DNA of 64,000 bases, taken from positions 416,001 to 480,000 of the IMG/VR virus record IMGVR_UViG_3300037484_000435, one strand, 5' to 3'. Positions 17,804 through 39,384 of this stretch are shown here, in pieces. A program made the position numbers and the translations under genes. This DNA comes from a virus. Its lineage: Duplodnaviria; Caudoviricetes. Each line of letters starts with the position of its first letter. Within the stretch, counting starts at the first letter, position 1. The notes under the pieces are model-generated. The model searched no databases, was not told the DNA's origin, and saw nothing but the letters and a program-made list of their open reading frames with translations.

Positions 17804-18013
17804 GTATCCTATCGGGCCGAACATGAAGAGAGGGTGGACCCCCTCCCCTAAGGCATTTTGGGAATTCAAAAGAGTATAGGGCCACCCCCTCGGTCCTATA
17901 CTTTCCTTCCTATTTATTAATTTATCCCTTCTTATATAATATTTTATCATTTCTTTTATACATTCCCCCACTTTATTACGTTCAGAACCGTAAATAAAAA
18001 GCCTTTTGTTTGT

Positions 18014-18048
18014 GGATAAAGAAAGCCTTTGGGACTTTCTTTATTTCC
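18014..18048 (-). terminator. Terminator-like hairpin at the convergence of the + and - gene blocks
   Basis: GGATAAAGAAAG..CTTTCTTTATTTCC inverted repeat; plausible in both directions. Confidence 0.6.
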
Positions 18049-18049
18049 T

Positions 18050-18620
18050 GTCACGTAGAGCAAGAGTGAGTATGACTCTTGCTCCAGTGTTTAGTCTTGT
18101 TCACGATCTACCCCACAGGAGAGGGGTTCCCTCTGCGTCCTCCTTCGAGGTTAACCACATCCCGCGTTTGAGTTACCTCTCTCGCTTTCAATGGCTACGC
18201 TTTGGCATTGAGTCAACATTACCTCCAATAGGACTCCAATCCTACCAGAGGTAATACCAACTCAAGGCAGAGATGGTGGCAAACCACCTCTGCGTTTTTG
18301 GTCTTGAGTCCCATAGACATGAGACGCCGACCTCCCTTACGCTGCCAACGTAAGGCTTTTCTGTCCCCTCTAGCATTGGCTTTGACCTGCCGTTGCTAAA
18401 GGGTTAGTCCCACGTATCTGAGTTGTCACCCCAGAGTTGCGGACAAGAAAGACCTAGCCCGAAAGCTAGTCCACCGTTCAGTGGAACAAATATCTCCAAC
18501 GTCAGGGGAATCCCCAACTGGCTCACTGCTTTTGACCAAAGGCCTACTACCCACAATGGGCAGCGGTGTCCAGTCTACTAACAGATTGCCAGAAGGTTCA
18601 GAGCCCTTCAGTTAGAGAGA
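18050..18620 (-). ncRNA. Large (~570 nt) structured ncRNA candidate, family uncertain (ROOL-class size)
   Basis: No credible ORF; stems at 18058-67/18075-84, 18218-25/18248-55, 18260-66/18303-09 enclosing 18267-72/18288-93, 18335-41/18349-55, 18454-58/18465-69, 18578-82/18611-15; bounded by a promoter-like site and a terminator. Confidence 0.65.
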
Positions 18621-18639
18621 GATTTGTTTCTTTCTCTAT

Positions 18640-18685
18640 TATTACTATTAATATATTATACGCGCGAGGAATAAAAAACCTTTCC
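18640..18685 (-). promoter_or_regulatory. Promoter-like element upstream of the large RNA
   Basis: On -: GGTTTTTTATTCCTCGCGCGTATAATATATTAAT; the same GGTT(C/T)TTT..C(C/T)CGCG..TATA pattern recurs near 21690, 22225, 23385, 23855 and 36265. Confidence 0.5.
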
Positions 18686-18723
18686 GATGTATAAGGCTTC
18701 TTATGTATTCGCGCGGGGAGTAA

Positions 18724-18765
18724 AAGAGCGTTAAAAGGTTTTCACCTCCTTTCTTTAACGCTCTT
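18724..18765 (-). terminator. Terminator insulating the large RNA unit from upstream genes
   Basis: 12-bp perfect stem AAGAGCGTTAAA/TTTAACGCTCTT, followed on - by a U run. Confidence 0.7.
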
Positions 18766-19084
18766 ATACATATGCTAGTAGTTGTATTTCTCTCTCAGGT
18801 CATCGAACATCCCAGCGTATGGGTCATCCGTTTTCCTGAACAGATCATCGTAAGCCTTCTTGTCTTTGGCTTCTCTCTCCAGTTTGTCAATCCTACCAGA
18901 ATTCCAAACAACACCAGCAGCCGCCAACAGTGTCAATGTAACTGGGTCCATAACACACCTCTCGTGTGGAATATGCGTATTACGTATTTTATAGAGGTGT
19001 CTCCCTCTACTCTTACTTAAATAACTATGACGCGCGGGGTTAGCGTAAACACGAGATGTACAGTCTCATGTTATACGCTATCCA

Positions 19085-19358
19085 TTAACTGATGTCCTTG
19101 AGGAATCTATGCAAGCCCTTCCTCATGTCTTCCCCAAGATGCCTCATATCTCGGAGAAACTTTTCATCTGCTGTTTCGGGCTCAGGTTCGGTTGCCCGTT
19201 TGATTTCGGTAACCTTATCCTCAACCTTCCTGACCACAGCTTTAATCTCGCCCCGCACAAAACGCGCGGCTTGATTGAACTGCTCAGCTTTAGACTCCCC
19301 CGCATTACTACGGCGGGCAAGTCCTTATAAGCCCATCTAGTCTTTCCAAAAACGACAT
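19085..19358 (-). pseudogene. Frameshifted hypothetical gene
   Basis: SD+ATG 19358 gives MSFLERLDGLI; a +1 shift near 19326 continues GLARRSNAGESKAEQ..FLKDIS to the stop at 19085. Confidence 0.45.
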
Positions 19359-22300
19359 TGCTATTCTCCCCTTACCCGATTTGAACTCGGGGGATCTGGA
19401 TATTGTCGATAGGCAAACCAAGTTGCTTACACTCGGACATGAGTTTCAGCAACTCTTGTTTATCTAGGGTTAGCTCTTGGGCGAGCCTGTTTATAACCAT
19501 GACCTTCTTCAAGTAGCTCTCAGTCATCTTGTTAAGTTTCTGGAGCTTTCCCCTTTTTGTTATGGCTATTCCAAACATGACACCCTCCTTCTGGGTATTG
19601 CGTTCTTTACATATTAACATTTTATATACCACACGTATACGTTCTAAATACACGCGGGTATAAGAGAGACGTTAATTAATCGCCTCCTTTCTTGTCTCTC
19701 TTATAGGTAAACTACTTGGTCTTTTCATTTACCTGCTTCTTCAGTTCCTTTGCTTTCTTGTCGACCCAGTCGGACGTTCGCTTGACGTCCTTGTTGTCGT
19801 CCTTTATCTGGGCCCATCTCGTCTCGACCTTGTTGGCCCAATCAACCAAGGCCCCTGCATGGGCGTTTACCGAGATGAAACAAAACAACACGGCCAGCAT
19901 AACGACTACTCTTTTCATTTCCCTCTCCTTTTATACCCAACGTGCATGACGCACATCAGGCGGAAGATCTAGAGGAGAACCCAAGAGAGGTTCCCTATCC
20001 AGAGTTATTACTTCAACAGGCCTGCCATACAGCATTGCTGCGATGCTGGCCTTCTCTTCGGACCCTGTTACGGCGAGGGGCTTCTCCTCACCGTGGATAG
20101 CATAGAGTGTATACATAACACACCCCTTTATCAAAACAAGGTTACGGTAGCCTTTCACTACAACTTGGAGAATACTATGTTCTCTATTATTACATAAATA
20201 TATATACGCACGTGCGTATAGAAGTACCCTTCAAGGGTTAGGGGGAAAGAAAAGAATGGTACAAGAAAAGAAATATGGCTTTATACACGCGTGGGCGGGG
20301 CTATGTTTAAAAAAGTTAGTCACTTTTTCCATAGAAGAAGTTCTCAGTGTTGTATGTAGGGTAATCTGTACAAAGCTAACGCTATTAATCTGCCTGTAAC
20401 AAGACAAACTAATAGTGTATGGGCACAAGGACGTGCCCGATAGGTACAATTGGAAGTGCGAAAGGGGTTGGATAACCAGTGTCTTAATGCTTTATTATAG
20501 TGAACGTAAAGACACACAACATATTCACTTTTATTTCTCTTGCCGCATCTTATTTTATTCTCTCTTCGACGGCTCCAACAATTTAGGAACGGAATACTAG
20601 GAAAATAAAACTAGAAGAGATACCTTTTATTATTACAGGGAGGCGTTACACGTTCACTCACACACATAATTAAATAGAAAAGCATCTATTATTTTTATCA
20701 GGGTAGTTAAATACGAGCGGTAACGAGCAACAAGATAAGAGAAAAGGCCAAAAAGAGAAAATAAAGACGAAAAAACTTAAAAAGGCTTAAATAGAGGGTT
20801 ACGAAAATTGAAAAACCGAACAAAGTGAATACAAAATCAATAAAAGAGGGAGATGGAGGAAATAAAACACAAATAATTGAAAATAAAGTGGAATTAGGGC
20901 AGCAAAATGGGAGCAAAGAGGTCCGAGAGGGGGAGGGCGCGCATCTTATATAAAAAACAGGTGGGGGATAGGATGGGAAAAGAAAACCCTTAATTTATTA
21001 TTATGTATGTACCTATATGTTTATTGTTTTTCTGTTTATCTCCCTATCGATATGCGTATGTATAATCACTACCTTTTCCATTAGTAAGTGGTAAGTAAAA
21101 TAAAAAAGCTTTTGTTTAGCTAATTATCTGTTTCGTTCCTTGTACGTGTGGGTATCAATTATGCAGTATAATCTTTAGTTTCTTTTTCCTGTTATATCCA
21201 ACAGTTGGGTATCTTGTTTTAATTGCTTATCGGGTACCTATCGGAAAAGCCTCTCTAATCAATTCTAGTCCCTTCTTATGTTCAAGTAGGTGTAGAATTG
21301 TCTTAAAGGTTTGCATCGTTCTATACCGCTTATATTAATTCTGAGGGCATATATCTATGCATATCACGGAGAACAGAAAAACCCTAAATAGAGTTAATCT
21401 GTCTATTCCACCATCCATCTCCTTTCTTCCCACATACGAGCAACTGCTTCCCAGTCACCTCGCATTATAGCTTTGGCCATGGGCAACCGAAGCTCTTGAT
21501 AGATGTAAGCCTCATAAGCTGCGTATCCCTTAAAGGCTTCCATCCTCTTCATTTTTCTTTTAGCACATTCTAGTTTCTCTTCTAGTGTGCCATACCGATT
21601 ACACTGTGTGCAATCGTGCATACGGGTCCTCCTTTCTCTCTACCTTAACATACGTGCACGTATGTTATTATTCTTTTACTCTATAATTATAAATGCGTAT
21701 GTGCGGGGACCAAAAGAACCTTAAATTATAGGTAGTCCTTTTGGTTTAGTAATTGTTCTGGTAATAATTGAGCAAAGTTATTAGGTGTTGGTCTGTAGTA
21801 CTTCTGTTGACCATCACCTGTTTCATGATTTGTTCTCCGTCAAACCATTGGGGGATTTCTCCCTTATGTGTAAACCCAAGTCTAGCAAGTTGTTTTGCCA
21901 AGTTCTCAGGTACACACACTACGAAAGGAGTATCACTAGCATATGCCTCTATTAACAGGGCCACTCCTTCTTTCCTATTCTTTGGGGCAAAGTGACTAAC
22001 CACGAATACCCCTTCAATCCACTGCCCTACCAGACAAGAGTCCATCTGATAGGGGCGATATACTATGCCACAGCCCCGCCCCAAGTGGCTAGCGAGGTCA
22101 CAGCAATAAGAAGACCCTCTCGATATGGCCTTCTCGTACCAGTCCGCTATGGAGCTGGCTTCTTCTTCTGTCTCAACAACAAAGAATCTTGTATTGTCCA
22201 TAACGGACCCCCTTTATATCCTACATGTGCGCGAGGGTGAAAAGAACCTTTCTGGAATCCGAATTAACGGTCCCCAAGGTTCTTTTCCAAATTGTGTTGG

Positions 22301-23296
22301 TCTCTAGACGTGCATTGTGCAATCGATGAAGTTCTCTCCCTCAATTGCCTGTCTCGCCATACGTTCTCGTGCGATAAGTCTTTGACGAGCGATCTGGTTC
22401 TTTCTTTGTTCTTCCGCAAGCAACTCGGCCTCATAAAGCTTTTTTGCCCGAAGTTCTTGTTGCCGAGCAACTTCCCTTTCTTCATTGACCATTCGACGCC
22501 TCTCGGCTTTGATTGCTCGGGCGTCTCTTATTTCGTCCACGCGATCCGCGATCTTCTCGTTAAGGTCGATGGCCTTGGTTACGGCCGAGTCCTTTACAAC
22601 CTTAAGCCCGTCAACAGCCTTTTCCGCCACGTATTGCACTGGAGCAACTGCGGCAAGGTCAACTATCCCAGCAGCGACCTTGACAGTCGACCCAGTGACT
22701 TTGGCTGAAGTTTCAAGGACATCCGCTACCAGATTCGCAATAAAGCTCATCGGTTTGTAGAATCTTCTCATGACATTACTCCTTCTAAAACGAACCAATC
22801 GAGATACCAGCAAAACTGGCTAGACGCACATACGCCTATTTAATTCTCTATTATCATATCAATATATTATTACGCTATACACACGCGATGTTAGGGAAAG
22901 CATTTAATTGCTAACCCATGGACATGATCGTCGTGCATGCCCCATCACCACCCAAGTTTTACTGTCATTAGGTGGACGCCCCGATCGCGCTTTTACGATC
23001 CAATCGGGAAGATCCTTGTAGATTACCAACAGGCTTCAACAACTAGAACTTTAAGCCCCCATCTACGGGCTTCAACTTCTGCCTCTAATTGCCCCAGATA
23101 GTCACGCATTTCATTTTCTGTGTAATCAAGTCCGCAGTTATTGCAAACCCAGACTTCTCCCTTTCTCTCCAATATGCCATTACGGCACCTCGGGCATTTC
23201 ATCATGTACCCCCATGTTGATCTTTTTCTATTTTGTCCTTCATTAATTATAACATGCAGGTACACGAAACCTTTTCTTTGGTCATTTTCTTTTAGT

Positions 23297-23359
23297 ACCC
23301 GATTACTATCTAACTATAGATCCTATGAAGGGTTAGTGGGATACTAACTAGGATCTATA
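23297..23359. repeat. Dispersed hairpin element, copy 1
   Basis: ACCC..TATAGATCCTA-tgaagg-GTTAG-tgggata-CTAAC-TAGGATCTATA. Confidence 0.7.
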
Positions 23360-24375
23360 TATTATATGCGACAAGTATACGTTCCGCGGGTGTGAAAAGA
23401 ACCTTTCTGAACTCCAAACAAATGGGCTCCAAAGTTCTTCTCTTGATTTGTTGTATGATCATTTGTTGTAGTATAAGCCCAATATCTGCGAATCATACCA
23501 CAGTTGTACTTCTGGACTTTGGAATCTTTCGTCTCCAAATTCATCCAAAAGGTCTTCTTTACTCGTTCTTTGAGCTTGTAAGCACAGTTGCTCAGCACGT
23601 AACGCCTCTCTTCGCCTTAACGTTAAGGCAGGAACCAAATACATCATAACACCCTCCCTTGTCATGCACGCAATAAACAATTTGTTTTGGGGCATAATCC
23701 CTCCCAATAGTTCCTTTCCCCACAAAAGGTTTACTCATTGGGGCCACCTCAGGTCTTATTGTTTGCCTAAGGCTGATACTCACACATTAATATGTTCCCG
23801 CTCCTATACAGGATTAATTTGTAATGTGCTTTCTCTATTTAAATAATAAATATATGCGCGGGTATATAAAAAACCAATCTCGTGACCACTGGGAGGGAGG
23901 GTCGGAAGGTGAGATTGGTTTTTTGGCTTTTGGTGGTAGGGACCGAGAAATTCTCGATCCCCAATGTAGCAACAATTTACAAAACAAAGGAGTTGTCATG
24001 GCAGAGACTGGGGGATCCCCTAACATCTCTACTATTTAGTATATATACCCTCAGGGTTAGTGGGAAGAAAAGAAGGTACAAGAAAAGAAAGGTTTGGGTT
24101 GTGGAGGGCCACCAGCGTGACCCTCTCCGCAGTCATGGTTTGGACTCAGGTTGGGAAAGCATGCCCCACAGGAGTAACAGTATCACCCCTAACAGCAGGA
24201 TGCCACCAATGCCATCATCCGTGGTTTCTTCGTCGTGTTCCTTCATATTCACCTCCAAGATGCCAGATGCAAAGCCCACCTACATACGCATGCATTTTTC
24301 AGGAGGGGGCGTTGCGGTCTTTTTTCTGTTGGTCGCTGGCAAATTTGTAAGGGCCTTGGTTAAGTTGTCTATTTA

Positions 24376-24870
24376 TTACTCAGGTAACCCAATATGGTCA
24401 ATGATTCCCTTCTCCTTAGCTTCTTCAGCCAAGAAATAGGTATCGGTTCTTAGCCATTCGTGGGTTTCTTCCCCAAGGCAATCACTATGGGCGACGTAGA
24501 AATCCTCGAACCTTTCGATATTTCGTTTCACGCGTTCTAAGGTTGAGGGTGCAGCATCACCATTGATATGCACGTTGTACGTGCCTCTATGTATCATTAC
24601 TTCTGCATCTGAGGACATATAGCGTCTGCCCTTGGTCCCCAGCATCAGTAGCATGGCTGCTGCACTGAACGCATAGCCTAAGCACACAGTTGTTACCGTG
24701 TGCTTCTTTGCCTCAAGCCTACGAATCAAAGGCATTGTGGCTAGAATAGCTTCACCATCTCCCCCGCCACTATTGATGATGATCGTGACATCCTCGTTTG
24801 CCTCCCATAACTTGGAAAGCAATTCCTTTTCTACATCTGTCGTGATTTCGCCTGTAATGGTGATTAACAT
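24376..24870 (-). CDS. clpP: ClpP-like protease
   Basis: IIINSGGGD, GYAFSAAAMLL (catalytic Ser), VMIHR (His), DTYFLAEEAKEKGIIDHI. Confidence 0.85.
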   Translation of the reverse strand: MLITITGEITTDVEKELLSKLWEANEDVTIIINSGGGDGEAILATMPLIRRLEAKKHTVTTVCLGYAFSAAAMLLMLGTKGRRYMSSDAEVMIHRGTYNVHINGDAAPSTLERVKRNIERFEDFYVAHSDCLGEETHEWLRTDTYFLAEEAKEKGIIDHIGLPE

Positions 24871-25519
24871 GGCTTACTCCTGCACGAAATGTGGACAGCG
24901 ACAGTGATACTCCGTCGCCTTTCTGCAGGCTGAGTCAATGGCCTCTTGAATAAAGTCAGGGGGCTGACTACCCCATTCCCCACGGCTGAACTCGTGTTCT
25001 ACCGTAGAGAGGATCTCGTCAGGATCGAGTTTAGAGAAACCACAGAACTTTCTAACGAGAATCTCAAATTCTCCCCGCCAATGTTCCACACCAATCATCC
25101 ACATCCCCACACGAACAGGGATGAGAGCATGACGGCCACAGGACAGATGCCCGCCACGAGGAATGTAAATAGCCTTGGGTTTACTACCATCCTCGTTGAC
25201 GATAACGACAGCATTTCCTGTGTTGGTTGCCGATCCTCCCTCCTCCCACATACATGGGAGTCCAGTTTTGCTTCTTTCAATGTTCTTCATGTCCGTGTCC
25301 TTTCTTAGACGTGAACTGGAATAGCACCATTTTTTGTTATAGAGTCGTGCTTCTCTATTACTTGTTAAGTATATATTGCTCGTCCATGGGTGCGCATGTA
25401 ACTCCAATTAAAGGGTCCTTGCCACATAACCTATCATTGGTTGTGTTCAGGATTGCCTCCACCCCTCTATTAAGACCAGAGGGGAATCCTCGTGTTGAGG
25501 ACTCCCCTATTGAACTACT

Positions 25520-26794
25520 TTACCTTACTATGTCTTTGTTCGTGATATAGAGGCCCATGAACTTTTTGAGGGGAAACTTTGAGCCCTCAACCACCCTTAT
25601 GAATGCGTGGGCCATAACGAATTCACCTCTCACTACCGCTACCCTGAAGCACTTCTGTTCTTTGGACCCATTAAACCAGAACTCCAGACAGTCATGTTTT
25701 AGTTCCCACGATATCGCGAGTTCAGGGAGCACTAGCACCACCGTGCCAATGGGCATGTATTTCTGGCTCATGAAATGCTTCCTCAGGTCGTGCGTGTTTA
25801 GAAGCTCATGAAGAGGCCGACTCAACACACAACTAGGGGCAGGGACACCAGAATCTTTGTCGGGCACGTCCTCCTTTACTCCCTCAGAGCTAACTAGAAA
25901 GTCCTCTGCTACAGAGACGCTGTTCTCTACTTCCGCTGGCGGTGGATCTTCCTCTGCGCGAACGTCCCTTGTGTGGGGGTGTATTTCGGAACAAATATTT
26001 ACGAGTTGTTCCTCTATTTTCCTAAGAAGCAGTGTGTGCTCTCCCCCCACCTTTAGGCGGTCCACCTCACGAGAAAGACTCTCGATTATGGACTCTGCCA
26101 AACGTAGTTCACTTTGGGCCTCAATGTCTTTTTCGACAAACGATCCCACTACCTCCTCAAGACTGAGGCAGTAATCTCTCATATCATTGAGTAGGTCTAG
26201 TTGTTTGAACATCCCTAGTGGGCCAATTTCTGAGGGGGATGTGGATGTTGTGTGTGGAATCGGGACCATTTGATAGGGTTGCTGGTAGATTTTGCTTCCG
26301 CACCCCTCACTTGCAGAATACGGCTTAACAACCCTGCTTGTATAAACTTTAGTACCGTTACCCCGCCACAGAAAATCCCAATCAAGGGGCCTCTTCCAGC
26401 CCTTGTCTCCTACAACCTCTCGGAAATACATAGCCTGTTTCATTCCAGCGTGGAATTCCTCTGGGGTTCTCCACATTACTGGATCCAAGGTGTAATCCTC
26501 AAGATTTGTTGTGGGCTCGTTAACAATAAAATTCATAACTCTTCTGGTGGCTGGATGTCCCGACTTTTTGACGATGGCTTCTCTCAGCAGGGAGAGTCCG
26601 GGGTCGATACACCACTTCCCCTGCGTAGTAGCTAACACCTTCTGGGCCAACACACAGGCACCCCAGATTTTGCTGGTTTTAAGTGCCTCAGCAACTTGGG
26701 GCCCCGCACTAACCGAACCAATCACCTGTTGAATAAAAGCAGGTGTGGTGTGGACAGTCCTACCATCCACTTGTCTAACCATTGTGCGAGACAT
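25520..26794 (-). CDS. Hypothetical protein, 424 aa, central coiled coil
   Basis: Long ORF with AGGAAGGAG RBS; no family recognised. Confidence 0.75.
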   Translation of the reverse strand: MSRTMVRQVDGRTVHTTPAFIQQVIGSVSAGPQVAEALKTSKIWGACVLAQKVLATTQGKWCIDPGLSLLREAIVKKSGHPATRRVMNFIVNEPTTNLEDYTLDPVMWRTPEEFHAGMKQAMYFREVVGDKGWKRPLDWDFLWRGNGTKVYTSRVVKPYSASEGCGSKIYQQPYQMVPIPHTTSTSPSEIGPLGMFKQLDLLNDMRDYCLSLEEVVGSFVEKDIEAQSELRLAESIIESLSREVDRLKVGGEHTLLLRKIEEQLVNICSEIHPHTRDVRAEEDPPPAEVENSVSVAEDFLVSSEGVKEDVPDKDSGVPAPSCVLSRPLHELLNTHDLRKHFMSQKYMPIGTVVLVLPELAISWELKHDCLEFWFNGSKEQKCFRVAVVRGEFVMAHAFIRVVEGSKFPLKKFMGLYITNKDIVR

Positions 26795-29528: not shown

Positions 29529-29909
29529 TTACCGCGGGGGAGTTGCTTTCACACCGGTATTTATCAGCGTACTCCCCATTGTAGACCACAGATCGGCCAA
29601 CCAAGACCTCTCTTTAGGTGATCGTTTACGAGAAACAATCCGTTTGCCACTATGTACAGCCAAATGCTTCCGCTGGGTAAGCCGCTCCAAATTTGTGGGG
29701 CCGTCGTTTAATCGGTTATGGTCCCGATGGTGTATCTCCTCCCCTTTTTGGAGCGGGCCCTCAGAGGGATTGGCCAGATGGTACACAAGAGTCGCACGCG
29801 TAAAGTATTGGTCGTTATAACATACTCTATAACGCCCATCTTTTTTAGAGATGAAATGCGTTCCTTCTTCCAACACCCTCTTGTAGAAATCCAGTTTAGT
29901 TTCTTCCAC
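29529..29909 (-). CDS. HNH homing-type endonuclease
   Basis: LVYHLAN..EIHHRDHNRLND..NLERLTQRKH. Confidence 0.75.
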   Translation of the reverse strand: MEETKLDFYKRVLEEGTHFISKKDGRYRVCYNDQYFTRATLVYHLANPSEGPLQKGEEIHHRDHNRLNDGPTNLERLTQRKHLAVHSGKRIVSRKRSPKERSWLADLWSTMGSTLINTGVKATPPR

Positions 29910-30792
29910 GTATTCCTCCTGTTATCCAACCCCACAACTTCGTGATTGGGTTCGTTGGTTGTTGTTTGTTTAAAGACTTGTTTAACAAATCCGCAATTGC
30001 TCTGGGGTCAACTTTTGAAGAACTTGTAGCTGGTGCAGTTCGTGTCCCGCGGGCCGTAAGGAACCCAGCCGAATGTACAAACCATTCACTCCTTTCTTCT
30101 TTGGGAACCGCTTCTAGAACAATACTAGTAGGTATTCTGATGCCATCGCGACGGGAAACCCCGACATTGTGACCATCCACATACACAATGAATTTAGCGC
30201 CCCTATCCATGAGGACGCCGTTGGTTGCTCTGTGTTGGGTATTTCTGGTGATGGCTACTTCCCCTATTATTTCTTGCGCATCTGCCTCTCTTTCAGCAAG
30301 GGTTCGTGATTGCCAGTTCTTTGCCAAGCCATCTAGTATAACAAACATTTGCTGGCATACCCAAGAATCGTCCCTATTTAATGCTTGGAAACCCCGAAGA
30401 ATCGCATGCAATCCAGTAGAAGTTAGGGCTAACAACGTCTCGTCAGGTAGCGATTTACCGAGGAGTTTCCTAGCACCTAAACCATAGGTATCCACGGTGT
30501 CTACCAACTTAACAAGCGATCTCAAATTTTTGATTATAACAGGGTCCCCATGCTGCTTTACCAAAAAAGCAAAACAGGAATGGACTCTCCCATTATTGTC
30601 TTTTTCCCCTTTGATCCCGCACTCTATGTCTAGAGCGATCTCATTGTCTGAGATATCTTCGGACTTTGAGTTCGCAGATACGAACCGCAACTTCGCTTGT
30701 GGGTTCGCATACGTCCTGTAAAACCAAGCGGATGTGACCGCGTCCACATCAACATTTACGTGAGTTACCACGTCTTTATGTTTCAACATCAT
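29896..30792 (-). CDS. DHH/MYG1-like phosphoesterase-fold protein
   Basis: VVTHVNVDVDAVTSAW and ALDIECG resemble DHH-superfamily N-terminal motifs; WFVHSAGF near the C-terminus. Confidence 0.4.
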   Translation of the reverse strand: MMLKHKDVVTHVNVDVDAVTSAWFYRTYANPQAKLRFVSANSKSEDISDNEIALDIECGIKGEKDNNGRVHSCFAFLVKQHGDPVIIKNLRSLVKLVDTVDTYGLGARKLLGKSLPDETLLALTSTGLHAILRGFQALNRDDSWVCQQMFVILDGLAKNWQSRTLAEREADAQEIIGEVAITRNTQHRATNGVLMDRGAKFIVYVDGHNVGVSRRDGIRIPTSIVLEAVPKEERSEWFVHSAGFLTARGTRTAPATSSSKVDPRAIADLLNKSLNKQQPTNPITKLWGWITGGIRGRN

Positions 30793-30796
30793 TCTT

Positions 30797-31393
30797 TTAT
30801 TCCTCCGATACCGCCACGGCTAGAAAGAGTTCAAAGACATCTGTGTAAAGATGACTACCAACAGGGAAAAACTGAACTAGTCCTTTTGTTGATTTGTTTT
30901 TTACACCATTTATGAGCATTTCGAAAAGCTCCGATGTTGCCCTTTCCAAATCATGCTCTTCCTCTTCAGTCCACTCCCACTCCTCATCATCTCCGTCCAC
31001 ATGCCATAGGGTTTTGACTCCTTTGAGTGTTTCTTGTATGATCCGCCCCCAAGGGCTTAAACCTTCTTTGGGAGATGGCCCATCCAAGATGGCTGCGTCT
31101 GCATTCAACTCAGGATAAGTTACTCCTAGGGCTTTCATTGTTGCTAAGAGACCATCAGCGTCTTTGTCAGCCACGATGACATCAACCCAGTCGAACTCCC
31201 CCGCCTGAAGCATCGACGAACACGAGGGATTCTTCTCTCTCGTTGAGTAGCGTGCTCTGTCACCAATGAGACGACGCACATACTCATTGCCAGGATGTTC
31301 GTGGTGATCCACCACATATACCTCTACGCCTCGCCTGTGTAACTCTGTCACGGTTCCTGTCATCTGCTTGGTAGCGGGCGTGTCGATGAACAA
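30797..31393 (-). CDS. DHH-motif protein, possibly the C-terminal part of a frameshifted gene starting at 31541
   Basis: YVVDHHEHP, ADKDADG; weak TTG start with an in-frame TAA just upstream; the RBS lies before ORF 31541. Confidence 0.5.
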   Translation of the reverse strand: MFIDTPATKQMTGTVTELHRRGVEVYVVDHHEHPGNEYVRRLIGDRARYSTREKNPSCSSMLQAGEFDWVDVIVADKDADGLLATMKALGVTYPELNADAAILDGPSPKEGLSPWGRIIQETLKGVKTLWHVDGDDEEWEWTEEEEHDLERATSELFEMLINGVKNKSTKGLVQFFPVGSHLYTDVFELFLAVAVSEE

Positions 31394-31576
31394 AACGTTG
31401 CTTGGGTTTTACCCTTTCTATTGTTTTCCTGAATGATTTAGAATACTCGGGTTCAGGTTTCATATAACTGTAGAAGAAGGACCACTTTCCTAGTGACAGC
31501 CCAAAATCCTTAGTTCGACGAAAACCCACCATCTTTTCCACCTTTTTCCTTTCTTTTGATTCATTTTTCTTTATTA

Positions 31577-31629
31577 ACCCTATCTAACCCTTAGATCCTT
31601 ATTGAGGTAAGTGGGTACTTATCAAAAGG
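31577..31629. repeat. Dispersed hairpin element, copy 2
   Basis: ACCC..TAGAT-CCTT-attgagg-TAAG-tgggta-CTTA-tcaa-AAGG. Confidence 0.7.
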
Positions 31630-32684
31630 CTCTAATGAATTATTCGTGCAGGCGGACAGGGGAATAGATTCATTGTCTTATTATTAATATATTAGACGCG
31701 TGTGCCCTCCCACGTGAGACTGCTATCCCTTAGGACTGAGTATCACGTGGAAGTACACGAGACGGGAATCCTAACCAACAGGAGGATCTAGTCCCTCACT
31801 TCTTGTTGGCGTCTGTCCTCTTCAGATACTCCTCTGCCCGCCTTAGGGTATCCGAGCTACTTCGCAGGGCGTCTTGTGCACACTTACCTGTGCATAAACT
31901 TTCCGCCCTGTACCTATCCATCAGTGGGTTTTGCCTGAGCAAGTCCTTGGTGCATTGATCTACACAAGGTTCGGCCCATATCACACTGGGCAGTAACGCA
32001 AGGATAAATGCAAAAACCAAACCAACACTAACAACCTTCTTCATTCTTCTTCACCTCTTTCGATTTAACCTCCTACCTTTATAAAAATCTTAGGTGGAGG
32101 AGTTGGGAAGTAGGCACGAAGGGCTGAACATAGCCAACCTGTCATACCTGTTTCCTTGTGGAAGTAAGTCCTCTCCCCGATAGCTTCAAGCTCTGCGTCT
32201 ACGCCAGGGAAGGGCTTATCAGAAAAAGTTAGAGCAAACGACTGTTGTGGTGGCAACCCCTTGATACCCAAGATGTAGTTGATCATCTTAGGAGTACCTC
32301 CTAGAAACAGCTCCCTGTAAATACTCCGAGGGGGGGGTCATCGAATAGCCATCCGAAGCCTTTCTCGTAATAAGGCCTAATGGTGTACATGGCGACCTCT
32401 CCCTAGGCTTGTGCCTGATAATCTACTAGACTCGGTGACACGGCGATCAAGGTTTTATCGAAGAGCTCCCTCTCCACCCTCTCCTGCCTCTGAAGTTGTG
32501 CGAGAATGTGCTCCAATACCGTTGTGATTCGATCCAGTCTCTCCGCAATAGGAAATAAAATCCTTTTGCTGTCCTCGCCTTGTTGAGTGGTCTCTGTGGA
32601 CATCGCCTTCCTCCTGTTATTTTCTAAAAGATTGCTTAATCCCAGAGTTTGACGTTCTGAAATTCAGCAATACCTCAGAAAAAT

Positions 32685-33083
32685 AAGTCTTGGTAAATAA
32701 GTATCTGGTATGTTGCTGATATAGTAAGATGTCTTCCCCAAGACACCGCAACAAGGCTAGATACTCAACCGTTGGTGTGTGCGGGAAGCACCACCAAGGA
32801 CCGAAGACTTAGACTACTTTTAACGTAGACCAAAATTAATATGAAAGATTGCGAACTACTGTGTCTACGTTGGGGTCTCGGGACCGCCGACCGATGTTAC
32901 CAACCATCAGCAGAGTGGCAAAACCGTTCCCTGCCTAGTTAGTAATACTACCCGCTTAGTGTGGGGCTAACACTTCTTCACAGTTAGTCTTAGTGTTCTG
33001 TCCTGCAAAGATGACATTGAACACATCACCTAATTGATATAGCTCAATTTAGGAAAACTTAGTTTAGAACCAAGAGTCTAAAC
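32685..33083 (-). ncRNA. Structured ~400-nt intergenic RNA candidate
   Basis: Nested stems 32685-91/32804-10, 32699-706/32759-66, 32711-16/32748-53, 32728-35/32740-47; also 32822-30/32863-71, 33029-53, 33062-83; no ORF. Confidence 0.55.
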
Positions 33084-33091
33084 GTTTCTCT

Positions 33092-33526
33092 TTATCGAAC
33101 GGGAACCACGTTCGCTTCGGCTTCACTGTCCATCCAAGAGGCAAACCAAGAAACCGCCCCAAGGATAAGAGCAAGACCGATAACGATCGTGATGGCCCAG
33201 AACACTACTTTAACCGCTACGAACAAAGCTCCTGCAACCACCAAGATCGCTCCTACGAGGAAAGCACTGAGGGCAGAAACTGCAGCGGTAATGTTTCCTA
33301 CCAACCCTGCCAAGCTCAGCTTTCCAAGCCAAGCAACGGCGGCGGGGAAGATGTGAAACAGAGTGAAGAAGCCGATAGCAAACGCGAAGCCTGCTGCGAT
33401 GTGGTCACCCATAGCAACCACAACCGAACTAACCCAACGGCCACCCGCCTTGGCGGTTTCCCACACTCTGGCGATAAGGCCTTTGGTGGCGTCTTTCACA
33501 CCACCGAGATCGATTTTGTCCAACAT
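33092..33526 (-). CDS. Multi-pass membrane protein
   Basis: 3-4 hydrophobic Ala/Gly/Val-rich segments; GGAGG RBS. Confidence 0.7.
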   Translation of the reverse strand: MLDKIDLGGVKDATKGLIARVWETAKAGGRWVSSVVVAMGDHIAAGFAFAIGFFTLFHIFPAAVAWLGKLSLAGLVGNITAAVSALSAFLVGAILVVAGALFVAVKVVFWAITIVIGLALILGAVSWFASWMDSEAEANVVPVR

Positions 33527-33765
33527 AGGACACCTCCGAAAACTTTTTTAAAAGAGCGATGCTCTGTTTTGTCTTTGTTGTCATCTCCTTGCTATTGCAC
33601 CAGAGATTTACATTTGTCCTAACACACTCACTGTCTCCGTCGAGATTCAGTTCCTGTGTTGTTTTTAAACCTAGAAGAGTATTGATGGTGGGGCCATCTG
33701 AGATATTTTGGGGTAAACATTTTGTGACGACGTTTCCCTTACGTGACACATGAATAATAGTATTT

Positions 33766-33828
33766 ACCCAAATACTCTTCATTAAACTATAAATCCCTTT
33801 ATAGGGTAAGTGGGACTTACTATAAAGG
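33766..33828. repeat. Dispersed hairpin element, copy 3
   Basis: ACCC..TATAAAT-CCCTTTATAGG-GTAAG-tggga-CTTAC-TATAAAGG. Confidence 0.75.
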
Positions 33829-34199
33829 TATTGATATTAGAAAGCACGCAGAGGCGATGGGCGGTGGAGAAGTCGGGTTACCTATCCCTAGGTGCCTGCT
33901 TCTCCCCGATCCCCATTTAACAACTTTGCCAAAAGCTGTAAGGCTTATCGCGATAGCCTAGTAGTTTTTTGGCCGAGGTAACTACCAGACCTCATTTGGG
34001 GCCAAGAACATCCAAAAATTTTTTAAACACAGGGGCCATAATACCAAGGACTTGTACCCCCGACTCAATCTTTTGTGTGATTGAAGTATTTGAGTCAGAG
34101 CAATCCATATCTGCAGCACTAAGTATTATCCTGTTTGTATCTGATAATAAATTACGTTCAATTTTGTTTTTGTCCATGTTTGTTTATTTAACTCCTGAT

Positions 34200-34680
34200 T
34201 TTTTGGGGAGGTGGAGTTAGTGGTCCTCGTCTTATCTACCTCCCCTACGCGCGGTGGAATGTTGCTGTGACTTGCTTTCCTCCCATCACAGGGTTCTTAG
34301 CCCACAGCAGAGCACCCTAAAAATGCGTGGCTTATTGCTAACACCCCAAACGATTTAACTGCTTCCATCGTTGGGTGCCACCACCAAGAAAAGTTGGAGC
34401 AGCGGGAATCGAACCCACTAGTTACGGTGTTCCACCATTAACACCGAGAATTTGCTCCGCTTCAAAGTCCAATCCAATCGAGACGCCCAGTGGTCGACTT
34501 CACTAGGCGTGGTGGGACTCCTCTAAGTGCTCCTCCCATGCACGACGGCGATGCTGGGTGTGGCTATCTGCCAGACCTCTAGAGCCGTTTCAAGGGAGGG
34601 GGTCGAGAGGAGTCCCGAGTTCTCAGTAACTATACTATCCCGACTATCCGGTGGGATCCAGAGAGGTAAGGGTCTGAGAA
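34200..34680 (-). ncRNA. Structured RNA region containing a tRNA-like module
   Basis: 11-bp perfect stem 34514-24/34606-16, stem 34621-26/34674-79, several further hairpins in 34205-34380 and 34483-34510. Confidence 0.5.
34394..34459 (-). ncRNA. tRNA-like element lacking an anticodon arm (66 nt)
   Basis: CGGAGCA/TGCTCCA acceptor stem (C:A at first pair), one 7-bp arm CGGTGTT-AATGGTGG-AACACCG, canonical T arm GTGGG-TTCGATT-CCCGC; CCA not encoded. Confidence 0.6.
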
Positions 34681-34861
34681 AACCTAACCTCAATGGTCCT
34701 CCGCCGATTAGGGGAGGATTTAGCATAGCCTTTAGAACCGGCGCTGTTAAAGTTTGTTGTTTTTTCATTAGAGTATTTACTTAGGGCCAGTCCATTTTAT
34801 AACTCCTTTCGTTTATGCGTAAACGGTGGGACTACCCACCTACCAAATCAAAAGGTAAAGA

Positions 34862-34919
34862 TCCTAATACTTATCATTTGTACTATAAATCCATTGGGTT
34901 AGAGGGTACTAACCAAAGG
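34862..34919. repeat. Dispersed hairpin element, copy 4
   Basis: TATAAAT-CCATTG-GGTTAG-agggta-CTAACC-AAAGG. Confidence 0.7.
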
Positions 34920-35054
34920 ATTGTATAGACTGCACATGGCACGCACGTAAAAAAAATAAACGCGCGTATTAAACCATTATTCCTTAAATATAACGGGTGA
35001 CACGTGCGTGCGTCACCCGTTATAGTAACACAAGCTGGGGGAGGGAGGGACCAA

Positions 35055-35213
35055 TTAGAGATACCTCAACTCAGCAAGAGATTCGATCCTGTCCGGATGA
35101 AAATCTTCCAAGTCACTACGTTCCTGAGAACCAAAGAAATCGTAATCCTCGCTGGAGATTGTGCGACACTTCTCTTCGTTCTCTGCCAACTCTAATTGGT
35201 CTCGATAGTACAT
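35055..35213 (-). CDS. 52-aa acidic peptide
   Basis: AGGAG RBS, ATG 35213, MYYRDQLELAENEEK..LAELRYL; not in the ORF track. Confidence 0.55.
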   Translation of the reverse strand: MYYRDQLELAENEEKCRTISSEDYDFFGSQERSDLEDFHPDRIESLAELRYL

Positions 35214-35253
35214 GTTTTGTCTCCTATGCTTTAAACGTTAACATATGGGAACC

Positions 35254-35511
35254 CTATACCGAACTACTCTCACCTTTCTGAAAATGGTCCCGATAAGCCG
35301 GCACAAAGTCCCGCACGAAATCCAATCCAAGCCTACGGCAGATAGACTTCACAAATTTGCGAGACAGGGTGGGGTCGTTATTGTGAATACGTAACTTTGC
35401 CACTCTCGTCCCGATGCTTAGTTTCTCGTGCCCAGACTTGGATGGACCATTATTACAACCCAAACCTTTGAAAATACTAATCGCAAGATTAGTTGGGATC
35501 TCCTTAGGCAT
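35254..35511 (-). CDS. HicA-like mRNA interferase candidate
   Basis: FKGLG..SKSGHEKL..VAKLRIHNND.TL...VKSICRRLGL fits the HicA G(S)H..H..l...sI..aGl pattern; no HicB seen nearby. Confidence 0.5.
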   Translation of the reverse strand: MPKEIPTNLAISIFKGLGCNNGPSKSGHEKLSIGTRVAKLRIHNNDPTLSRKFVKSICRRLGLDFVRDFVPAYRDHFQKGESSSV

Positions 35512-35561
35512 AGGTTTAATGATAACCCTTTTGCAAACTCCACAAAGCGGAGTCGCAGGAC

Positions 35562-36203
35562 TTATTCGAAAGGGGAGTCCAGAGACTCACTAACCTCCTT
35601 CTCAGCCGACGGCTGCTCGTTGTGGGCTTCCTCCTCAGTGGAAGATTCACTGGGTTGAGGTAGTAGAATGTCGAGACCCTCCAAAGCCTTTCTTAGACTC
35701 TGGCGACCTTCACACAAGGAAAGCACTATTTCATCCATCTTGCCGAACTCCTCTTCTCGGCGCTCGTAGTGCTCCACCTTAGCGTTTAGTTTTTCAACTT
35801 GGACACTTCGGTCAGCCAGTAGGCTCTCCGCCTGCTCCATTCTGGTTTTGTAAAGGAGAGCTTCCGCTTGGAATCTATCCGCAGATTTCTCAAGCCGGGA
35901 AATGATTTGGATCACTTCTTGGGTGGCCCTCCCCGGGAACTCCTCAGGTTTTTCTTCTTGAACAGGAAGTCTCATTCCTTGCAAGATACTGTTCTGCTTT
36001 GCCGTGTAGAGACCCTTTTCAACACGCTGAATCAACCCAGCGTGGTACATTTTTGGGAGAAGGGTGGCCAACGATGTTAGCCCACCAAATCCTTCATCCT
36101 TCCCCAAAGCTAGCCACAAATCTGCTGTTCTGAATTGGGTTTCGGGGTGTTGATCAATAAATCGCTTGATCTTGGTTTTCTGATCAATAGAAACGTTTTC
36201 CAT
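35562..36203 (-). CDS. Winged-helix plus coiled-coil protein
   Basis: ATG 36203 with GGAGAAGAGG RBS; IKRFI..FRTADL..LPKMYHAGLIQRVEKGLY wHTH-like, then heptad repeats. Confidence 0.6.
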   Translation of the reverse strand: MENVSIDQKTKIKRFIDQHPETQFRTADLWLALGKDEGFGGLTSLATLLPKMYHAGLIQRVEKGLYTAKQNSILQGMRLPVQEEKPEEFPGRATQEVIQIISRLEKSADRFQAEALLYKTRMEQAESLLADRSVQVEKLNAKVEHYERREEEFGKMDEIVLSLCEGRQSLRKALEGLDILLPQPSESSTEEEAHNEQPSAEKEVSESLDSPFE

Positions 36204-36454
36204 AACCTCTTCTCCTTTCCTCATACGTGCGGGTTGATAAACAACCTTTCTTATCTTATATTTACCGCGGGTACACACGAAACTTTCTTTTGTATTCATA
36301 TTTTCTTTGTACCCGATTGTACTTCAATCGCCTAGATTCTATATTACCCTCTATTGAAGGGATAGAGGGATATATAACTAGGCTCCTTGCCGCATTGGCG
36401 CGGACGCCTACTCGACGCTGCCAGTGGTTACTCTTAACTGAAAATTTCAAATAA

Positions 36455-37050
36455 TACATCACCACCTTTGGAACACCAAAGGGGAAGTGTCCAGTTCAAG
36501 CATCGAGAGAAGCTGTAATCTTCTCAAAATACATATCGGGTGAACTAGAAAATACCCGTCCTGTTTCACAGGCTTAGAGCTTTTGTTATGGCCAAGCCCA
36601 AGACCTTTTTCGCTAACTGTAATAATTAAGCGATGGTTAAGGGTTTTCTCCAGTTGAATTCTTCCTGTCTTATGATCACTCAAAAACCAAGGTTTCCAAT
36701 TCAGGGCTACCCTAGGTAGAGTAGCCCCTCCCATAATCACGACATCTGCTCCTCTTGTCATTGAGTCTGTCTCCCTTTCAGAGTGTGACTCAACCTTCTT
36801 GGGGAGGGAGGGGTAGCAGATCGCTGTCACTGATTGAACCTGACTCGGTTTGCTCGGATTTCTCTCCGAACAATTTAACGTCTGACCGAACCCTTTTACT
36901 TCTACTGTCATGGCCCTTCCTTTTCTCTGATGCTTCGGGTAGGCACCAAAGCAATGTTGAGATGTTTTGTGATGAAACTTCAACCTAGGCAACAACGAGA
37001 CAACCATACTACAATTGTCAAGTCTTACCACCTCTTTAGCTCTAAACAAA
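36455..37050 (-). ncRNA. OLE-like large ornate RNA candidate (~600 nt)
   Basis: Many stems (36465-82, 36507-25, 36537-58, 36560-72, 36704-27, 36762-92); RNA-sense blocks AAGAGGUGGUAAGAC, UAGUAUGGUU, UAGGUUGAAGUU, CUCAACAUUGCU, CAGUGACAG, AAGGUUGAGUC and UUGGAAACCUU in an order resembling OLE RNA as I recall it. Confidence 0.6.
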
Positions 37051-37198
37051 TTAAACACGACAGTCAAACCAACCTCCTTCTTAGTCTACTCGAAGAAGCG
37101 ACCCAACGGGTCATTAAGAAAAAAGAAATATTAAACACCAATAACCTATATATACAACGGGACTCACACCCGTTTTGATTTGGTCTTATTAGAATATT

Positions 37199-37272
37199 AC
37201 CCGAATATTCTTATGAGACCTATAAACCTTAATATTTAATTAGGGTAAGTGGGACTTACAATTAAATAAAGG
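37199..37272. repeat. Dispersed hairpin element, copy 5
   Basis: ACCC..TATAAA-CCTT-aatATTTAATTagg-GTAAG-tggga-CTTAC-AATTAAATa-AAGG. Confidence 0.75.
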
Positions 37273-37340
37273 CTTATAGTTCTTTGAAAGCGTGAACACG
37301 TAACCCTCGCGTGTCAAAACATTAGTCTTTTTTTCTATAA

Positions 37341-37399
37341 ACCCAATTAGTCTTTAAATATATAAACCTAAAATGGGTAACGAGGGTTACCATTTAAGG
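37341..37399. repeat. Dispersed hairpin element, copy 6
   Basis: ACCC..TATAAA-CCT-AAAATGG-GTAAC-gagg-GTTAC-CATTT-AAGG. Confidence 0.75.
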
Positions 37400-39384
37400 A
37401 TTGATATACAAAGAGGGGAGCTGGAACGTAAGAAAGTGGGAAGCAAATGGAAAATTTACCTAAACAGACGGATTTTACACCGTCTGTAGGTAAATTTGTA
37501 GCTGGATTTACTTAGGAAGCAAATAAGGGTTGTGTTTGAAAGCCAACGATAGGATTCCCTTTACAACCATGCCTGTAATTTGCACTCCTGCTCCGCACAT
37601 CCTTGCTACTGACCTCTCATCTGCTCTAAAATAAGTTCTTTGGTAACTATTCTTGATTGATCCGTCTCTACGATAAGTCCTCCTTTGCGTGTTGTAGTAC
37701 TCTACCATTCTTGGTAAGTACCTCCTAGTATTTTTGCCAACAAACACAATTGAATCTTAGGATTAACCTAATCACATTTTGAACAATCATTGTTGGCTTC
37801 AACTATAAATCACAAACAATCTGCCAAAAGATTCCTTGTTGGTCAACAACCATTATCAATCAACTTTCATTACGAAAGAACGATGAGAGTTCCTATGAAC
37901 TGGACCGTTGTGTTTTGAGACGTCTATCCTCTTCCATCCGCCTACGTCTTTCTCTCTCAGCCTTCAGCTCCTGCCGTTTAGCATACTTCTTAACGGCCCG
38001 CTCCCTAGCTTTTCTCAACAACTCTGAACCAGCAACGTTCTTACCGTCTACGTAAGTGATACCTTCCGACAGTTTGTTGAGCGAGAAGATCAGCCCGTTA
38101 CGATGCTTTCGAGCATGCAGTTTCTTGGCATGTTCGGCCAACAATTTGGCATGCTCCGCGTTTTCACACTGAAACGTAGCGGTTGTCTTGTCTGCTGGGA
38201 GATCCAACGTGGTAGGAGTTCCACCTACCATCTTCCGAGCATTGAATTTACACTCCACTACATCGCCCCGCACAGTAGCCTCAATCACTTTCACCCCTTT
38301 ATAAGGGGCACTGAAGCGACCACTCTTACCTGAACCACCCTCAGAACTTTTCTTTCCCATTGTCAAACCTCCTTTTGGTTTACCTTTCGGATATGGGATT
38401 TGTAGCCCCAGAACGTAAGCCTATGGAACAAAATAACATTCGGGGCTATATTAAACGTTATTTTTGTGCGAAATCAAGCCATCTGAGCGAATTTCGCATT
38501 TGCGGCCCGCAAAGACCCCCATAAGCATATCAGGCAGTTACATATGGCATCCTTAGTGTTACCAAGGAGCCGAAAATAAACGCCTAACTAGAGAAATAGC
38601 AACCTACGAAACCATCGGTGGTTTCTGTGGCCTCCTCGGGTTCGTGGCCCAGATGGTCACACAATAGAGCACCACAGTCACTATGTAGCCCGTGAAAGTA
38701 AACGTCTACGTCTTCATTGTAGGGCAGACAGACATCAATGAACTGCATCTCTATTATATTGGACCAATACACCTCTTGGTCAGGGTGCCCCAAAGGCTCA
38801 AATAAAGACCTTTGTAGGTCTTGTAATTCCAGTAACTCCGTATCTGTCATTCTTTAACCTCTATGGTATCGCACCTTTCGGGGATTACAAATGCCACAAA
38901 TTCACTCCCCGCACCGTCTTTTGGTCGCGCTCTCAACGCATTTATGAGGGAAGAATTCGTAAATCCCAAAGGGATAGCACTGCTACTTATTTGGGCGTTA
39001 AGACCATCTTCCAAATAACGGCCCCAGCACTTACCACAACCACAATAACGGATGTGATAGGTAAGTTTGATTACGTCTTGGCATTCTTGGCAGAAAATGA
39101 GCTTCATATTCTTCCACTCCTAAAACGTAAAACCCCTAGATTTATCTAGGGGCTTCACGGCCTTGTGGGTTATCAACAAGCCAGAGACCTCAAAACCCGG
39201 TTGAGCGTCTCAGGATCGAGAATCTTGTAAGGTTCTCTCTCGTTCTTGTTGGGCTCGATGACACACCGCCCCTCAACGATGAGGGACACCCTTGGGGGAC
39301 GACCCGTAATTGTATCAACGCGGTCGACGATCGGATTGAGCCTCTGGTCCTGTTCCATTTAATGCTTCCTTTCTGTCTGGATAT

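Follow-up and report, generated by a model that had tools for sequence, protein, structure and literature searches.

How many genes for large structured RNAs lie between the protein genes of a huge phage, and do such RNAs belong to one system? The question is raised by a stretch of 64,000 bp (bases 416001-480000, hereafter the window) of a single 545,322-bp virus record, IMGVR_UViG_3300037484_000435, a member of the Caudoviricetes with a guanine-plus-cytosine (GC) content of 41.9%. An initial annotation had singled out seven intervals of the window, four of them large and poor in open reading frames (ORFs; here R1 to R4) and three small (S1 to S3), and had taken them for an island of large, ornate non-coding RNAs. 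All seven intervals exist, but in folding only R1 bears out the description (z = -8.1); the signal is weak in R2 and R3 and not distinctive in R4. Where several different ornate RNAs had been read we find one that is convincing and one that is probable, together with a spacer and a protein gene. R1 makes a convincing gene for a new, tightly folded non-coding RNA of about 600 nt. For the region as a whole the best explanation, which we hold with somewhat more confidence than doubt, is a cassette-rich accessory arm in which R1 is a true RNA gene, R3 a probable RNA, R2 a spacer or leader and R4 a protein gene.

Folding, coding content and boundaries of R1

The minimum free energy (MFE) of each interval, at the exact coordinates of the initial annotation, was compared to the energies of 60 dinucleotide shuffles per strand, and genes of similar length from the same window served as coding controls. 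The controls mostly gave z scores between +1 and -2; the exceptions were the clpP messenger RNA (mRNA), at -6.9, and a 144-aa gene, at -4.4. Because coding controls reach -6.9, a z of -2 to -4 cannot tell RNA genes and mRNAs of this phage apart. R2, R3 and R4 all fall within the range of the coding controls (Table 1), whereas R1 lies far beyond its shuffles: the MFE of 18050-18620 is -244 kcal/mol, compared to -189 +/- 6.8 kcal/mol for the shuffles (minus-strand z = -8.1). The predicted fold contains 208 pairs, 28 of them G-U, which engage 67% of the bases in a structure of 16 hairpins, the longest with 27 uninterrupted base pairs (18208-18265). Fold energy and z were also determined for every interval of the genome without a stop-free frame of 90 codons. 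On this scale no other ORF-free interval in the 545 kb stands out in structure as strongly as R1, which has -0.35 to -0.39 kcal/mol per nt and minus-strand z scores of -6 to -10.

The longest stop-free frames in R1, R2 and R3 are 71, 63 and 85 codons, lengths typical of shuffled sequence (P = 0.5-0.8), and reading TAG, TGA or TAA as sense under an alternative genetic code gave no credible frame in any of the three. For these intervals the description as ORF-poor is accurate; for R4, which holds a 202-codon ORF, it is not. The gene caller of the Joint Genome Institute (JGI) assigned no gene to R1. When the 58-aa neighbour was looked up by exact sequence, the matches were one JGI contig, 100% identical to the window, and one Logan contig; chance ORFs inside R1 used as queries recovered no called "proteins" on other contigs.

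A cmscan search of Rfam 15 matched no known family, and R1 drew no match even when searched alone at E <= 10; its novelty with respect to Rfam is upheld. GOLLD (RF01998) and ROOL (RF03087) gave no match on the window (gathering threshold), on 22 kb (E <= 1), or on R1, R2 and R3 alone (E <= 10). By covariance-model test R1 is an RNA without an Rfam family; it is not GOLLD, ROOL or OLE. A group I or group II intron was rejected as well, there being no Rfam match and the flanking ORFs being separate genes with their own starts and stops. R1 is single-copy, and no paralogue of any flagged interval was found within the genome.

Genes lie on the plus strand up to 17.8 kb of the window and on the minus strand beyond, so the flagged region starts at the convergence of two gene arms. 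R1 sits at this junction of plus and minus genes, which is also the turning point of the cumulative GC skew. It has the form of a unit: a terminator hairpin and a promoter-like motif stand before it, and a 12-bp hairpin with a weaker terminal hairpin marks its end, while few of its hairpins carry U-tails. The promoter motif is of a type that also precedes neighbouring small genes; a scan for sigma-70 promoters found 29 sites, compared to 29.4 expected. As a large ornate RNA running from promoter to terminator, the form claimed for most of the intervals, R1 alone qualifies. R3 is plausible in that role, R2 is more like a leader or spacer, and R4 is coding.

A further feature of R1 is a CA(3-5)(C)GC motif, spotted post hoc, which occurs five times, compared to 0.27 occurrences expected from shuffles and a genome rate of 0.42 per kb. 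In all five copies the A-run is unpaired and lies between helices of the predicted fold.

R1 in other metagenomes and its counterpart in a relative

Public sequencing runs that share words with R1 comprise the probable source run, from sediment, and seven runs from other studies. When run contigs were placed along 20 kb of the window (17900-37899), pieces fell on R1 in six of the seven foreign runs. Jointly these contigs span nearly all of 17996-18691 at 92-99% identity, and they derive from wetland, freshwater, bog and biogas metagenomes (Table 1). The rest of the 20 kb attracted from the same runs a few pieces of no more than 111 nt at 81-92% identity, plus one 43-nt element; in run X2 half of R1 is covered and nothing comparable is found across the other 19 kb. 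Some bias is built into the comparison, since the foreign runs were selected for holding R1.

Within the source run, word depth rises to 8.3 on the R1 contig, its neighbours having about 4.7, and there are two points, 17942 and 18668, at which contigs diverge. The raised depth and the two points of divergence suggest that several genotypes in the run share one R1. One source-run contig joins 18668, in the R1 promoter region, straight to 22832 and so skips 4163 bp of small genes, which suggests a co-occurring genotype that is without these cassettes but keeps R1.

Other collections yielded no further copies. An exact-pattern scan of IMG/VR with three R1 words gave no match, and neither did one or two exact patterns (R1 words or the tRNA-like 3' end of R3, see below) in JGI metagenomes and GTDB genomes. 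R1, R2, R3 and the RNA of the related phage described next were without a blastn match among 50,697 phage records. RtcB was tried as a route to relatives of R1 and reached only unrelated phages of 43-129 kb that lack it.

A search with TerL (G000:369358-371130) retrieved four related IMG/VR contigs, the best of which, G007, is 259,732 bp long (61% identity). G007 and the window have many proteins in common at 30-69% identity, few of them within 18-37 kb, and nhmmer detected none of R1, R2 and R3 in the four contigs. The most stable ORF-free interval of G007 (188478-188843) adjoins sequences homologous to 20.2-21.0 kb of the window. On one side, the R1 promoter region matches the region upstream of the G007 RNA (71% over 52 nt, E = 0.001); on the other, the block just downstream of R1 matches G007:188853-188925 (73% over 73 nt, E = 2e-7), and the 24-nt core of this block is present only in the two genomes. 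The G007 RNA itself (G007:188505-188885, plus strand) is 381 nt long, ORF-free and without a match in Rfam; its predicted fold has 26 G-U pairs and a z of -6.9 on the sense strand, compared to -2.2 on the other. Because the flanks match while the RNA bodies share no words above chance, what appears to be conserved between the two phages is the locus, and with it the trait of encoding a strongly folded, strand-specific RNA, rather than the sequence. The difference between the bodies may reflect either rapid divergence or an exchange of cargo within a cassette that is itself conserved.

Two other ORF-free intervals of G007, at 143310-143667 and 154189-154581, are very stable as well. The window also contains a 1.2-kb ORF-poor stretch (20160-21400) with a GC content of 0.35 and a pyrimidine-rich, unstructured minus strand. 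Parts of it recur in a bog metagenome at 84-88% identity and are also kept in G007 (nhmmer E = 1.5e-7), and a second strain of the source run differs there by dozens of substitutions and by gaps of 360 and 185 nt. This stretch may be a regulatory or replication region.

Table 1. Positions of features in the window. The z scores (MFE relative to 60 dinucleotide shuffles) refer to the intervals as delimited in the initial annotation; X2 to X8 are metagenome runs from other studies.
Feature	Position	Strand	z minus	z plus	Description
R1	18030..18650	minus			stand-alone large structured non-coding RNA, about 590-620 nt
R1, folded interval	18050-18620		-8.1	-4.7	
R1 promoter region	18641..18700	minus			T-run, CGCGCG box, AT-rich box, AATAGAG-type start
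Conserved block	17940..18012	.			just downstream of R1, where gene arms converge
Contig of X8 (biogas)	17996-18143				3 differences and 3 gaps
Contig of X2	18118-18268				5 differences
Contig of X3	18303-18489				5 differences
Contig of X7 (bog)	18318-18566				19 differences
Contig of X4	18448-18598				3 differences
Second contig of X2	18509-18659				8 differences
Contig of X5	18547-18691				1 difference
R2	32604..33091	minus	-4.2	-4.2	488-nt non-coding spacer between 144-aa and 66-aa genes
R3	34200..34800	minus	-2.3	-4.0	5' GC-rich domain, tRNA-like module, 3' GC-rich domain; runs into 61-aa gene (33992-34177)
tRNA-like module of R3	34394..34459	minus			
Hairpin-plus-TTTATAG promoter-like element (dispersed)	34860..34930	minus			upstream of R3
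R4	36459..37067	minus	-2.6	-1.1	202-codon gene; TTG start at 37067, 5 nt after AAGGAGG
Two hairpin promoter-like elements	37137..37450	minus			upstream of R4; nhmmer E = 1.7e-16 to G007:175992-176326
Copies of the dispersed element	33790-33850, 34860-34930, 36340-36400, 37200-37290, 37340-37440				upstream of minus-strand units
S1	22915..23015	minus	-0.5	+0.9	short spacer
S2	33855..33935	.	-3.1	-6.7	one strong hairpin, between 61-aa gene and next promoter element
S3	38367..38583	minus			weakly structured leader of 155-aa gene (37893-38360)
S3, folded interval	38385-38575		-2.5	-1.5	
ClpP protease	24376-24870				
LAGLIDADG endonuclease	39385-40197				
L7/L12 C-terminal domain protein	45462-46025				
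TnpB (IS605 OrfB)	47081-48244				
RNA ligase	53186-54280				RNA-repair gene
RtcB	57974-59131				RNA-repair gene
MYG1-type exonuclease	62831-63832				RNA-repair gene

The remaining intervals

R3 is probably a second RNA, either a composite structured RNA or a long leader. It occupies 601 nt upstream of the 61-aa gene and has no ORF beyond chance. No ORF-free interval exceeds its GC content of 0.51-0.54, which only those that bear transfer RNAs (tRNAs) match; the genome stands at 0.42 and the median for ORF-free intervals at 0.41. Structured RNAs are known to stand out by elevated GC in long intergenic regions, which is exploited in the approach of PMC6429828. In the genome-wide fold scan R3 is unremarkable. 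Searched alone against Rfam at E <= 10 it drew chance-level matches only, the best being tRNA-Sec with 15.7 bits, compared to a cut-off of 47 bits.

Between its GC-rich domains R3 carries a tRNA-like module, read from the sequence, whose three helices are recovered by the fold. It is composed of an acceptor stem of 6 bp (7 with a C-A mismatch), a D-like arm of 7 bp with an 8-nt loop containing GG, and a T arm with a 5-bp stem and the loop UUCGAUU; there is neither an anticodon arm nor an encoded CCA. As in tRNAs, the acceptor stem stands on a 5-bp T stem, the 7-nt T loop is of the form UUCRANY and the elbow loop has its GG (34394-34459). Three identities were considered for the module and rejected. 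As a true tRNA it lacks the anticodon arm, ARAGORN made no call at default settings and only poor calls when relaxed, and the Rfam score is the one given above. As a transfer-messenger RNA (tmRNA) it was not called by ARAGORN (default) and drew no Rfam match, its third acceptor pair is A-U and its halves are adjacent with no tag region between them; unlike tmRNA, it is without the G3-U70 pair, the tag frame and the CCA. As a YrlA or Y RNA it has no Rfam match and the wrong order of arms. The module runs from acceptor 5' through the D-like and T arms to acceptor 3', with open ends, whereas in YrlA the order is permuted to T arm, closed acceptor-like stem and D arm (PMC4201824); unlike YrlA, therefore, the module keeps the normal arm order of tRNA, and it is without a Ro-binding stem. 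What it has in common with tRNA mimics (the tRNA-like domain of tmRNA, YrlA and mascRNA) is the acceptor stem, the UUCGAUU T arm and the GG in the D-like loop.

In M. smegmatis, RNase P cuts YrlA if the acceptor stem is 7 bp long (PMC4201824). Because the mimic in R3 retains the nucleotides that form the elbow and an acceptor stem like that of tRNA, RNase P, RNase Z and the CCA-adding enzyme would recognise it. Cleavage of the transcript would release a 5' RNA and a mini-tRNA and leave a 3' piece with the 61-aa gene, and the module would act as a processing or docking signal. The layout of R3, with a tRNA-like element between two domains, recalls GOLLD, some members of which carry a tRNA in the linker (PMC12286853). 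Outside the window, five T-arm motifs of the GGTTCGAWTCC type stand apart from the ARAGORN calls (genome positions 62034, 66730, 89224, 516375 and 516511).

The simplest reading of R2 is a long leader or spacer. Its 3' 197 nt (32604-32800), beside the downstream ribosome-binding site, fold with a z of -5.1 (plus strand -3.8) and the remainder with a z of -2.5. The interval as a whole shows no strand preference (z of -4.2 each), has an ordinary GC content of 0.42 and is unremarkable in the genome-wide scan. On its own it matched nothing in Rfam at E <= 10, and the nhmmer and blastn searches described above found no relatives in the four related contigs or the 50,697 phage records. Directly downstream of a hairpin promoter element lies a 117-codon ORF (33429-33782) with a very weak codon score of 0.051 that overlaps the start of the 144-aa gene by ~100 nt; this ORF may be a leader rather than a gene.

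Might R2 and R3 instead be the remnants of decayed genes or mere long untranslated leaders, and the tRNA-like piece a functionless tRNA pseudogene? The two intervals have no relatives and no excess folding, the GC content of R2 is average, the block that holds both is absent from G007, and the module fails every tRNA model. This account nevertheless sits badly with the GC content of R3, which at 0.53 tops all ORF-free intervals and is unlike that of decaying phage DNA, with the intact helices, T-loop and GG elbow nucleotides of the module, and with the five further T-arm elements outside called tRNAs. We regard decay as a doubtful, though serious, alternative.

R4 appears, from the preservation of its reading frame, to be a fast-evolving protein gene. 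No shuffle in 3000 attains a stop-free frame as long as its 208 codons, the start codon follows a strong ribosome-binding site, and a hairpin with a U-run forms a terminator over the stop codon. The syntenic interval of G007 has a 201-codon ORF in a stop-free frame of 206 codons, again a length reached by none of 3000 shuffles. The body of this ORF cannot be aligned with that of R4, while the flanks of R4 are kept in G007 (nhmmer E = 1.7e-16 and 0.0012). An OLE-like RNA (RF01071) was rejected for R4: the 202-codon ORF fills the interval, and the model gave no match on the window (gathering threshold) or on 17500-39500 (E <= 1), R4 not having been searched alone. A 43-nt element (36377-36419), with the R4 terminator on one side and the next promoter hairpin on the other, is 98% identical in a foreign wetland run, where the adjacent hairpin element is recognisable too, and is partly kept in G007.

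The three smaller intervals, described at the outset as structured, differ among themselves. S2 is indeed one hairpin, probably a terminator; S3 is weakly structured (z = -2.5), and two of its blocks are conserved in G007, where they precede the homologous gene (nhmmer E = 3.7e-4); S1 is not structured beyond chance (z = -0.5).

A dispersed element, always found upstream of minus-strand units, combines a small hairpin with a CCC loop, enclosed by an AT-rich stem, and (G/A)TTTATAG after it. Two of its copies, those at 37200-37440, are kept in G007. The element probably represents a class of promoter that is specific to the phage and differs from the CGCGCG type seen at R1.

The genes around the flagged intervals are mostly small orphans. 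A 245-aa protein (35562-36299) has itself as sole match among 5.8 billion proteins, and protein searches found no relatives of this protein or of a 424-aa neighbour; with such neighbours, comparison is limited here. The genome has 40 tRNA genes (ARAGORN), one of them with a CUA anticodon at genome position 47126-47202. At 46000-46600, several consecutive 200-nt windows have minus-strand z scores of -4 to -6 in a region covered by overlapping ORFs on both strands.

What R1 may do

The region would be an accessory arm built of short promoter-to-terminator units, most of which encode small orphan proteins and one or two of which encode RNAs. Minus-strand transcription of R1 would start at a promoter of the type used by its neighbours, as the motif and its conservation suggest. 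The transcript of R1 would be stable, roughly 600 nt long, and folded into about 16 hairpins within two domains, each closed by long-range pairing. Most likely it would act in trans as a scaffold, which would either gather multiple copies of a protein of the host or the phage or assemble with itself; the five unpaired CA(3-5)(C)GC joints would suit repeated protein binding or tertiary A-minor contacts. We infer this role from the extreme conservation in close relatives, the folded RNA at the locus of a distant relative and the five joints.

On this evidence R1 is most likely a functional counterpart of GOLLD and ROOL, two large ornate RNAs of phages, and not a member of either family. It resembles them in being 0.6 kb long, phage-encoded, dense in helices and without a partner gene. 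It differs in not lying beside a tRNA island, the nearest called tRNA being about 40 kb away. GOLLD and ROOL, phage or prophage RNAs of unknown function, form nanocages (PMC12286853), and R1 could be an RNA-only homo-oligomeric assembly of this kind, a cage or ring, in place of a protein-binding scaffold. Its size class, its phage origin, its extreme helix content and the absence of a partner gene nearby would all agree with such an assembly. R1 matches neither covariance model, however, and a self-complementary palindromic loop was not found among its predicted hairpin loops, and we consider a homo-oligomer unlikely.

A different possibility is that R1 acts in cis at the junction of the gene arms, either as an array of hairpins that stops read-through from both sides or as a DNA site for replication or packaging. 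The position, exactly where plus genes meet minus genes and the cumulative GC skew turns, invites this reading, as do the plus strand, which also folds above chance, the conserved block directly after R1, and the distant relative, which keeps a structured interval and not its sequence. Such a site would scarcely account for the strong strand asymmetry and the many G-U pairs in both phages, the conserved promoter that R1 has of its own, or the scarcity of hairpins with U-tails, and 92-99% identity over about 700 nt in close relatives exceeds what a terminator array needs. With strands so asymmetric, a promoter of its own and so high a conservation, R1 is less likely to have a purely cis role, which we think improbable.

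The combination of a fixed locus with a changing sequence has a precedent. In the phi29 family, packaging RNA (pRNA) is encoded by a gene at a fixed locus, and its sequence has diverged beyond recognition between relatives while a folded RNA persists. The R1 locus is alike in holding a folded RNA in both phages despite unrecognisable sequence. It is unlike in other respects: phi29-family pRNA has 120-174 nt and is encoded at the genome end, and R1 has no Rfam match and no link to packaging. We propose, tentatively and at rather less than even confidence, a new class: in a clade of huge wetland and sediment phages, an obligatory gene for a folded RNA would occupy the locus where the gene arms converge (about 600 nt here, about 380 nt in the 259-kb relative), its sequence near-frozen among close relatives and unrecognisable among distant ones. 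The same proposal includes R3 as a second, GOLLD-like composite RNA, with an anticodon-less tRNA mimic as its processing or docking module.

Several observations weigh against the accessory-arm reading, with R1 and R3 as RNAs and R4 as a protein gene. The plus strand of R1 likewise beats its shuffles (z = -4.7). Fifteen difference calls in R1 (13 positions), taken from the difference lists of foreign contigs other than that of the bog run, point neither way: six keep predicted pairs, seven are at pairs that are not kept and two are unpaired. The five-copy motif has the weakness of its post hoc discovery. The bodies of R1 and the G007 RNA show no likeness above chance by nhmmer, blastn, MAFFT or shared-word counts, and may be unrelated cargo in a shared cassette and not one evolving family. 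The folding energy of R3 (z = -2.3) is no better than that of coding controls, and its relatives were not found by nhmmer in the four related contigs, by the exact pattern of the tRNA-like 3' end in IMG/VR, or by blastn among the 50,697 phage records. For R4 the codon score is weak in both phages (0.046-0.047), the protein has no homologue among 1.84 billion representatives, and its ESM Atlas model has no confident fold (predicted local distance difference test, pLDDT, 0.31); here we weighed the doubly preserved open frame above the codon score, the missing homologue and the low pLDDT.

Least probable is the system-level reading with which the region was introduced, in which four or more ornate RNAs and RNA-repair enzymes would form one functional island, an RNA-based module for host takeover or a ribonucleoprotein scaffold. 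In its favour, R1 is a real RNA and so, possibly, is R3, 16 kb away; 17.8-38.8 kb is enriched about 3.7-fold in intervals without ORFs; the genome has its 40 tRNAs elsewhere; and the window does encode an RNA ligase, RtcB and a MYG1 exonuclease. Against it, R4 is coding, the folding of R2, R3 and R4 does not surpass that of mRNAs, the block at 28.5-36.3 kb with R2 and R3 is missing in its entirety from G007, the intervals are connected neither by a common motif nor by paralogy, and the repair genes, real as they are, lie 16-45 kb from the RNAs, are scattered in G007 and have nothing that links them to the RNAs.

Large, intricately folded RNAs of bacteria and phages are rare, and the classes OLE, GOLLD, ROOL and raiA each revealed an unexpected RNA architecture; to our knowledge, their functions are still open. 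In the present region a false lead has been removed: the OLE-like interval is best read as a protein gene, and a four-RNA island tied to RNA repair is without support. R1, by comparison with these classes, is a clean and compact candidate, with defined ends, extreme folding, strong conservation across six independent environments and a positional counterpart in a relative, and it is accessible to in vitro transcription, chemical probing and cryo-electron microscopy without culture of the phage. The tRNA mimic of R3, if true, would add a case in which a phage uses the shape of tRNA outside decoding.

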